DNA from: a virus
Taxonomy: Duplodnaviria; Heunggongvirae; Uroviricota; Caudoviricetes
DNA length: 64,000 nucleotides
Direction: 5' to 3' (one strand)
Virus record (IMG/VR): IMGVR_UViG_2721755662_000004
The notes under the pieces were generated by a model that saw only the letters and a list, made by a program, of their open reading frames with translations, searched no databases and was not told the DNA's origin. Both the position numbers and the translations under genes were made by a program. Numbering within the stretch: the first letter of the stretch is position 1; each line of letters starts with the position of its first letter. Shown here in pieces: positions 14,771-15,451 of the stretch.

Positions 14771-15088
14771 TCATGATATTACCTGGATTCCGTTTTTCTC
14801 TACGACTGAAAGAAGGCGAAGAGCGGCACCTCCCGGCCGTTTTACACCACGTTCCCAGTCTGATATCAGGTTTTTACTGACGTTGAGGTATCTGGCAAAA
14901 ACAGGTTGAGACAGATGCTCTCGTTCGCGCAGTGCACGGATCCTTTCCGGAGACATTACCGGCGCTGGCTGGAGACAAGTTTCATCGAATTCTCGCATAG
15001 TCTGTTTCGTTACTGCGCCGATATCATGAAGCGATTCCATCATTTCATGTACGGATGCAAGCGCATCACTGCGGTAATTTTTACTCAT
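14771..15088 (-). CDS. HTH (XRE-type) antitoxin, HigA-2-like
   Basis: 105 aa; C-terminal HTH (LSQPVFARYLNVSKNLISDWERG); start overlaps upstream toxin stop (ATGAGTAAA). Confidence 0.7.
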   Translation of the reverse strand: MSKNYRSDALASVHEMMESLHDIGAVTKQTMREFDETCLQPAPVMSPERIRALREREHLSQPVFARYLNVSKNLISDWERGVKRPGGAALRLLSVVEKNGIQVIS

Positions 15089-15451
15089 TGGGTACCTCCG
15101 TAAACTGACCCTGTAGAATCAGTTGTGCCAGTTGTTCATCTGTTAGATTGAGTACGTGAGGAGCCGCCTTCCGAAATGCACTTTCCGCAGTAGCGGTTAT
15201 ATTTTCACGTTCATTTTTTGCGTATGCATATACGAAAAAGGCCCTTGTGCCGACGCGATAGAAAATGATTGTGCGATAACCGCCAGATTTGCCGCCACCG
15301 ACTCGTGGCAGACGTTGCTTGATAACGCCGTTACCCAGGTTTGCTGAGATAAGCCCGTTATCAGCCTGTTTAACAATTTCGCGCAGTGATTGGTCGGATA
15401 TTTTGTTTTGCGTGCAAATCGCTCAAACCAGGCGTTTTTAAAAATGCGCAT
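15081..15451 (-). pseudogene. HigB-2/Gp49-like (RelE/ParE superfamily) toxin gene with apparent -1 frameshift in an A-run
   Basis: Frame A MRIFKNAWFERFARK then junk; frame B from about 15404 gives KISDQSLREIVKQADNGLISANLGNGVIKQRLPRVGGGKSGGYRTIIFYRVGTRAFFVYAYAKNERENI...EVPNE ending at antitoxin start. Confidence 0.6.

Follow-up and report, generated by a model that had tools for sequence, protein, structure and literature searches.

The closest described system to the locus analysed here is HigB-2/HigA-2 of Vibrio cholerae (structures 5ja8, 5jaa and 8a0x; Hadzi et al. 2017, PMC5416850). HigB2 cleaves mRNA in a ribosome-dependent manner (PMC5416850; PMC11980606), and PF06296 is listed as the family containing it, with ribosome-dependent mRNA degradation and a toxin-then-antitoxin gene order (PMC11980606). 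In its partner, VcHigA2, the neutralising segment is N-terminal and disordered, and the HTH is C-terminal (PMC5416850). A second point of comparison is provided by the orphan antitoxins and anti-addiction modules of E. coli (PMC10790755), in which an intact antitoxin is found without a functional toxin in an integrated mobile element.

We analysed a 64,000-nt stretch of viral DNA (IMG/VR record IMGVR_UViG_2721755662_000004; hereafter the window) that carries a related locus on its minus strand. Based on its sequence and on a structural model, this locus can be classified as a prophage-borne, HigB-2-like type II toxin-antitoxin module with the toxin-first order of the V. cholerae system. While that system is located in the Vibrio superintegron and has a working toxin, the window locus is located on a lambdoid prophage and its toxin gene is a frameshifted pseudogene. 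It resembles the orphan antitoxins in that an intact antitoxin accompanies a non-functional cognate toxin, but, unlike typical orphans, it keeps a nearly full-length toxin remnant, which suggests that the orphan state is recent. We consider it very probable that, in this prophage module of the HigB-2/HigA-2 kind, the toxin is dead and the antitoxin has been kept, probably repressing its own expression. This is ordinary toxin pseudogenisation in a prophage toxin-antitoxin module and reveals no new mechanism; what it usefully adds is that the toxin was inactivated repeatedly and independently and that its RefSeq annotation masks the pseudogene.

Family, fold and cassette of the module

When the toxin was conceptually repaired to 123 aa, it matched PF06296 at full length (154.2 bits, cut-off 27; E = 2.1e-45; profile positions 1-120 of 120), so the ORF pattern described below is not due to chance. 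A first-pass annotation of the window had named the toxin HigB-2/Gp49-like. The HigB-2 half of this name held on both fold and sequence, whereas the Gp49 half was dropped because the Gp49 profile PF05973 did not match the repaired toxin at E ≤ 0.01; PF06296 (RelE/HigB-2) was the only family reported. No NCBIfam model matched the toxin, PADLOC left it unmatched and drew generic HTH matches only for the antitoxin, and PHROGs placed both proteins in families of unknown function. An AF2 model of an intact homologue 98% identical to the toxin (P0001), built from a 46-sequence alignment of intact homologues, had a pLDDT of 91.1. Its ten best Foldseek matches in the PDB were all V. cholerae HigB2 chains (probability 0.99-1.00, TM 0.47-0.60, E 1e-4 to 1e-2), with identities of only 21-26%; for 5ja8, 5jaa and 8a0x, the probability was 1.00 and the TM 0.51-0.60. 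The model of this homologue thus has a RelE/HigB-2-type fold. By sequence, HigB-2 was the sole solved relative of the toxin, with a weak but specific similarity around the GKxGGxR core (E = 0.005).

The antitoxin gene (14771-15088, minus strand) is intact and encodes a HigA-2-like protein of 105 aa. Its HTH (PF01381, 32.3 bits, cut-off 23) spans residues 50-94, and its best solved relative is HigA-2 (5jaa_A, E = 7.9e-8, residues 45-99), indicating a C-terminal XRE-type HTH related to that of HigA-2. The two antitoxins are of the same size (HigA-2 is ~104 aa) and the HTH occupies the same C-terminal position in both, but residues 1-44 of the window protein do not align to HigA-2 by sequence. 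These residues are near-invariant among E. coli variants. Toxin neutralisation is presumed to reside in the N-terminal half, whose near-invariance would fit a binding role.

The two genes show HigBA-type order, with the toxin upstream of the antitoxin and overlapping it: the toxin stop codon (TAA, 15083-15081) and the antitoxin ATG (beginning at 15088) share 8 nt, ATGAGTAA (15081-15088). A GGAGG Shine-Dalgarno sequence (15095-15099, minus strand, within ACGGAGGTACCCAATGAGT) is located 6 nt upstream of the antitoxin ATG and would permit translation of the antitoxin uncoupled from that of the toxin. A perfect 6-3-6 palindrome, TAACAC-TAT-GTGTTA (15474-15488), lies 23 nt upstream of the toxin ATG. 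Because the homology common to the mosaic allele classes (80-84% identity) starts at query position 31, a short distance upstream, the palindrome appears to be part of the cassette, and it is a candidate operator for the HTH antitoxin. A consensus promoter scan upstream of the toxin found no minus-strand sigma-70 site. At the other end, a GC-rich hairpin with A/T runs on both flanks (AAAACCCGCTTCGGCGGGTTTT, 14735-14756) separates the convergent antitoxin and Doc genes; it is likely a bidirectional terminator and marks the end of the module. No second copy of the toxin or antitoxin was found by tblastn of the 64-kb window. The same cassette of palindrome, toxin, overlapping antitoxin and terminator is present in the intact E. 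coli alleles WP_077168034.1 (strain HCP4S3_I4) and WP_001217944.1/WP_000042395.1 (O157:H7 PV15-279). HCP4S3_I4 shares 99.1% DNA identity with the window and has an identical antitoxin protein.

Deletion of one base in the toxin gene

The toxin pseudogene (PF06296, RelE/HigB-2 family) occupies 15081-15451 on the minus strand. Its native ATG is at 15451-15449 and frame 0 opens with MRIFKNAWFERFARK, but only codons 1-15 are in this frame. The other 108 codons and the stop codon are in the -1 frame, whose translation reads ...NKISDQSLREIVKQADNGLISANLGNGVIKQRLPRVGGGKSGGYRTIIFYRVGTRAFFVYAYAKNERENI...FTEVPNE, with the recognisable toxin remainder ...NKISDQSLREIV...GGGKSGGYRTIIFYRVGTRAFFVYAYAKNERENI...FTEVPNE. 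Past codon 15, frame 0 continues out of frame as TKYPTNHC... up to a premature TAA (15199-15197, minus strand), giving a product of 84 aa (15 native and 69 out-of-frame residues) that is named only "hypothetical protein" in public records and matches no PHROG family. The PF06296 domain is therefore not encoded by a single uninterrupted ORF, as a 1-nt deletion divides it over two frames. The 15 residues still in frame 0 correspond to strand E2-6 and helix H7-15 of the model. Eight of these residues (K5, N6, A7, W8, F9, R11, F12 and K15) do not vary within the family and two more (E10 and R14) hardly vary; the block severed from the toxin body is thus the most conserved part of the family.

Alignment to intact alleles places the lesion at 15406-15409 (minus strand), where the window has A4 and the intact alleles, with an in-frame 123-aa toxin, have A5. 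All in-frame alleles of the closest classes read CGC-AAAAA-C-AAAA-TATCC and the window reads CGC-AAAA-C-AAAA-TATCC, so that CGC AAA AAC AAA ATA (K-N-K-I after CGC) becomes CGC AAA ACA AAA TAT. The in-frame reference alleles include those of HCP4S3_I4, SCU-104, 2013C-3033, KY203 and several IMG/VR contigs. The missing base can be assigned to the first A run, at codons 15-16. The first-pass annotation had described a toxin frame with a normal start and about 108 codons in the -1 frame, and the translations bear this out. It had suggested loss of one A in AAAACAAAA as the cause and a comparison with intact homologues as a check; that comparison agreed and narrowed the site to the first run. The same annotation had reported an intact XRE-type antitoxin whose start overlaps the toxin stop, which was confirmed as the 105-aa ORF, and its suggestion of a decayed module with an orphan antitoxin is supported by this intact antitoxin beside a broken toxin; the anti-addiction or regulatory role that it had raised for the antitoxin is plausible. 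The in-frame state must be ancestral: intact homologues of 123-124 aa are found in E. coli alleles of the 92%, 84% and 80% classes as well as in other genera, and the homologues from Salmonella, Chromatiaceae, Halomonas and others, which are 123-130 aa long (~139 aa at most, in a few cases), are likewise uninterrupted.

The 781-nt region is base-identical to that of six complete E. coli genomes (FORC_069, FORC_043, FORC_029, NCCP15648, NCCP 13905 and NCCP 13983) and 99.9% identical to that of ML35; the coordinates of the FORC_069 annotation agree exactly with the window ORFs. An 81-nt probe across the A run matched 36 complete E. coli genomes, with A4 in 30 and A5 in six. The O104:H4-type allele accounts for 18 of the 30 A4 genomes (17 of which, from the O104:H4 lineage and its relatives, also match the full 781 nt), and its carriers include 2011C-3493, C227-11, HUSEC2011 and 2009EL-2050/2071. 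An exact-pattern scan of IMG/VR found A4 on seven contigs and A5 on seven. A4 is also carried by the deposited phage genome PhiR12_3 (from ECOR13); a literature search for this phage found nothing. In a 15-billion-protein collection (NCBI, ENA, JGI and Logan), the exact 84-aa product was present on 188 contigs, a one-residue O104:H4 variant of it on 210 more, and intact 123-aa toxin forms on ~900 (654 + 114 + 112 + 18).

These counts bear on the alternative offered in the first-pass annotation, a homopolymer sequencing or assembly error in a genome that really has A5 and an intact toxin. The lesion is located in a short homopolymer, and several of the carrier genomes are presumably long-read assemblies, both of which would favour an error, but it is refuted by the presence of the same A4 allele in 30 of the 36 matching complete genomes, which come from many different laboratories and lineages. 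The IMG/VR contigs, PhiR12_3, the public contigs with the exact out-of-frame product and the six assemblies base-identical to the window point the same way, and related alleles have added further lesions on the A4 background, which means that A4 must be inherited. An error was rejected on these grounds and is the least probable of the alternatives considered here: the one-base deletion is real and inherited and has made the toxin gene a pseudogene. A full-length toxin might nevertheless be made in regulated, low amounts by programmed -1 ribosomal frameshifting or transcriptional slippage. The required shift is indeed -1, the 108 codons of the toxin frame downstream contain no stop, and an A precedes the frame-0 AAA (15403-15401), such that Lys-tRNA could re-pair in the -1 frame. 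However, an X-XXY-YYZ heptamer is absent from the sequence, the downstream 83 nt show no more stable folding than their shuffles (z = +0.93; 164 of 200 at least as stable), and A4 runs are shorter than is generally needed for transcriptional slippage. Furthermore, the shift is limited to one recent, near-identical allele class, with no conservation in diverged homologues, and the A4 alleles gather second frameshifts, as would be expected of a dead rather than a recoded gene. Programmed frameshifting was rejected for its lack of heptamer, stimulatory structure and conservation, and we regard it as highly improbable; rare spontaneous -1 slippage on A-AAA may occur at a low level, with nothing to suggest that it has a function. 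Very little probability is likewise given to a working, N-terminally truncated toxin, namely the 112-aa "RelE/ParE family toxin" of RefSeq (WP_226867305.1; CDS 15081-15419), which PGAP calls as an ordinary CDS with no pseudogene flag, starting at an ATT codon (15417-15419, minus strand). This protein would hold the whole beta-sheet core, but E. coli very rarely initiates translation at ATT, and the sequence upstream of the codon has only a weak GAG. The -1 frame offers no canonical start for a long ORF: in the ORF list, no -1-frame ORF of at least 25 aa that ends at the toxin stop has an ATG, GTG or TTG start. According to the model, the truncation would delete strand 1 and most of helix 1, omitting approximately K5-F12 and with them the invariant K5, N6, A7, W8 and F9 and the nearly invariant E10, and ribosomes in frame 0 from the native ATG would cross the ATT site. 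Based on the rare start, the missing conserved N-terminus and the lack of a canonical start, this candidate was also rejected.

Recurrent toxin disruption beside an unbroken antitoxin

Five distinct toxin-disrupting indels were identified among the 31 copies examined, while the antitoxin is full-length in all 31. In addition to the A-run deletion (the window class, the O104:H4 type and PhiR12_3), these are a deletion of C at nt 287 (O104:H4-type alleles, cM8a, 23CRST047 and L031), a deletion of A at nt 269 (23CRST047), a 6-nt deletion at nt 268-273 (L031) and, in 37 of the 168 complete genomes with the allele of the 84% clade, a G run longer by one base at nt 95. The O104:H4-type alleles thus carry a second deletion, at nt 287, on top of A4. 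The extra G (GATAAGGGGGATC) is seen in E. coli GE3 (L004, 3128-3146) and 36 other complete genomes; it leaves the O157/O26/O145-type toxin of the 84% clade in two pieces, of 40 aa and 85 aa, and these genomes too have an intact antitoxin. Two SNP sites 203 nt apart, 15390 and 15187, occur in all four combinations among near-identical copies, and the C deletion at nt 287 is found on both A4 and A5 backgrounds. Taken together, these two patterns indicate recombination between prophage alleles inside the toxin gene.

Among intact alleles, dN/dS is 0.01-0.08 for both genes, and such strong purifying selection suggests that the module was working until recently. The antitoxin protein is identical at 105 of 105 residues throughout the near-identical class, and its exact sequence is present on at least 1000 contigs. 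By our own arithmetic, five indels in the 372-nt toxin gene against none in the 318-nt antitoxin gene has P ~0.05 under equal rates, an asymmetry that is suggestive but only marginally non-random.

The following sequence of events would account for the present locus. The module would have consisted of a toxin of the HigB-2 kind (a RelE-fold, ribosome-dependent, mRNA-cleaving member of PF06296) and an antitoxin of the HigA-2 kind, whose N-terminal segment would neutralise the toxin and whose XRE HTH is C-terminal. After loss of one A of the A5 run at codons 15-16, the native ATG would yield only 15 native and 69 out-of-frame residues before the stop at 15197-15199, and the 108-codon toxin body would be left without a usable start codon. 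As the antitoxin gene is still full-length and has a strong putative ribosome-binding site of its own, and the operator-like palindrome is also kept, the locus would now make antitoxin/repressor only and would have lost the ability to poison its host. Its most likely output is an antitoxin that represses its own gene, with no active toxin. The antitoxin may persist as a recent neutral remnant, or it may, in addition, guard against the intact homologues of the toxin that other lambdoid phages carry.

That the antitoxin is kept by selection, whether for anti-addiction and cross-immunity or as a transcriptional regulator, and that recurrent loss of the toxin is adaptive, is a reading that we hold only tentatively and as the less likely one. 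It draws on the contrast between at least five independent toxin-breaking indels and none in the antitoxin, on the invariance and wide occurrence of the antitoxin protein, and on the large number of orphan antitoxins found in E. coli, for which anti-addiction roles have been proposed (PMC10790755). In addition, a single residue (V26I) separates the window antitoxin from the partner of the intact O157:H7-type toxin, and the N-terminal 35 residues show only one or two differences (H21Q and V26I) among the five variants compared, which makes it plausible, as far as the sequences go, that the antitoxin cross-neutralises intact relatives on incoming phages. However, the lesions are recent (the alleles are at least 99% identical), such that neutral persistence accounts equally well for the intact antitoxin, the substitutions since toxin loss are too few to show its maintenance by selection, and the indel asymmetry is marginal in significance. 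Carrier genomes hold a single copy of the locus at megablast sensitivity and therefore no resident close paralogue to neutralise. A simpler cause is also available for the asymmetry: loss of the antitoxin first would be lethal, whereas loss of the toxin first would be harmless. Somewhat less likely again is the fuller version of this selective reading, in which toxin loss is recurrently adaptive and the antitoxin disarms the intact HigB-2-like toxins of competing lambdoid and Stx phages and perhaps also acts as a repressor at the promoter region that it shares, back-to-back, with the isrK/C4-controlled antirepressor operon. Because it shows clean, well-replicated asymmetric decay, with at least five independent toxin indels and the antitoxin unbroken, the dead toxin with its retained antitoxin could serve as a case in which to test for selection of orphan antitoxins as anti-addiction factors.

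Annotation and prophage neighbourhood

The main importance of the locus lies in annotation, as its RefSeq entry hides a pseudogene. WP_226867305.1 is present on 110 contigs, and the O104:H4-type alleles are annotated with "toxin" fragments of 85 aa and 68 aa (226 and 174 contigs, respectively). Because the RefSeq entry reads as a normal toxin, toxin-antitoxin surveys would count a dead toxin as a live one, including in the O104:H4 outbreak lineage.

The prophage that carries the module is a lambdoid, Stx-phage-like element of E. coli; the module lies within its early part, with the replication and nin genes. Following the FORC_069 annotation, the prophage genes include integrase, exo/bet/gam, CI/Cro/CII-like regulators, replication and nin genes, together with Q, the lysis genes and structural genes of podovirus type. 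Three toxin-antitoxin loci adjoin one another here (13503-15451): sok/hokD (13503-13827), a 59-aa ORF with Doc (14037-14720; TIGR01550, 122 bits) and, last, the HigB-2-like module. The Doc module adjoins all 16 of the disrupted loci of the near-identical class and is absent from both intact ones (L009 and L028).

Two copies of a c4-a1b1/isrK/C4 antisense-RNA cassette were identified with Rfam above the gathering score, at 15542-15740 and 17127-17325 (both plus strand). Each has an antirepressor gene directly downstream (ORF6N/P22AR at 15794-16459 and Ant at 17378-18061, respectively). The first copy is served by a near-consensus promoter, TTGACA-18-TATATT (15519-15548, plus strand), located ~30 nt from the palindrome and arranged back-to-back with the promoter region of the toxin-antitoxin module. 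Further downstream, 766 nt separate the antiterminator gene Q (19694-20128) from a nanS-p-like SASA esterase gene (20894-22804), and an STnc100 sRNA (20467-20672) is located inside this gap. Because the gap leaves no room for stx and no tRNA genes were found in the window, the prophage can be described as a Stx-phage-like backbone without stx. In the late region, a second Hok/Gef family gene (43617-43757, plus strand) adjoins an Ail/Lom family gene in the FORC_069 annotation. Towards the far end of the window, Rfam sRNA-Xcc1 is found twice above the gathering score, at 59696-59785 and 60579-60664 (both minus strand; 67.7 and 73.4 bits, respectively).
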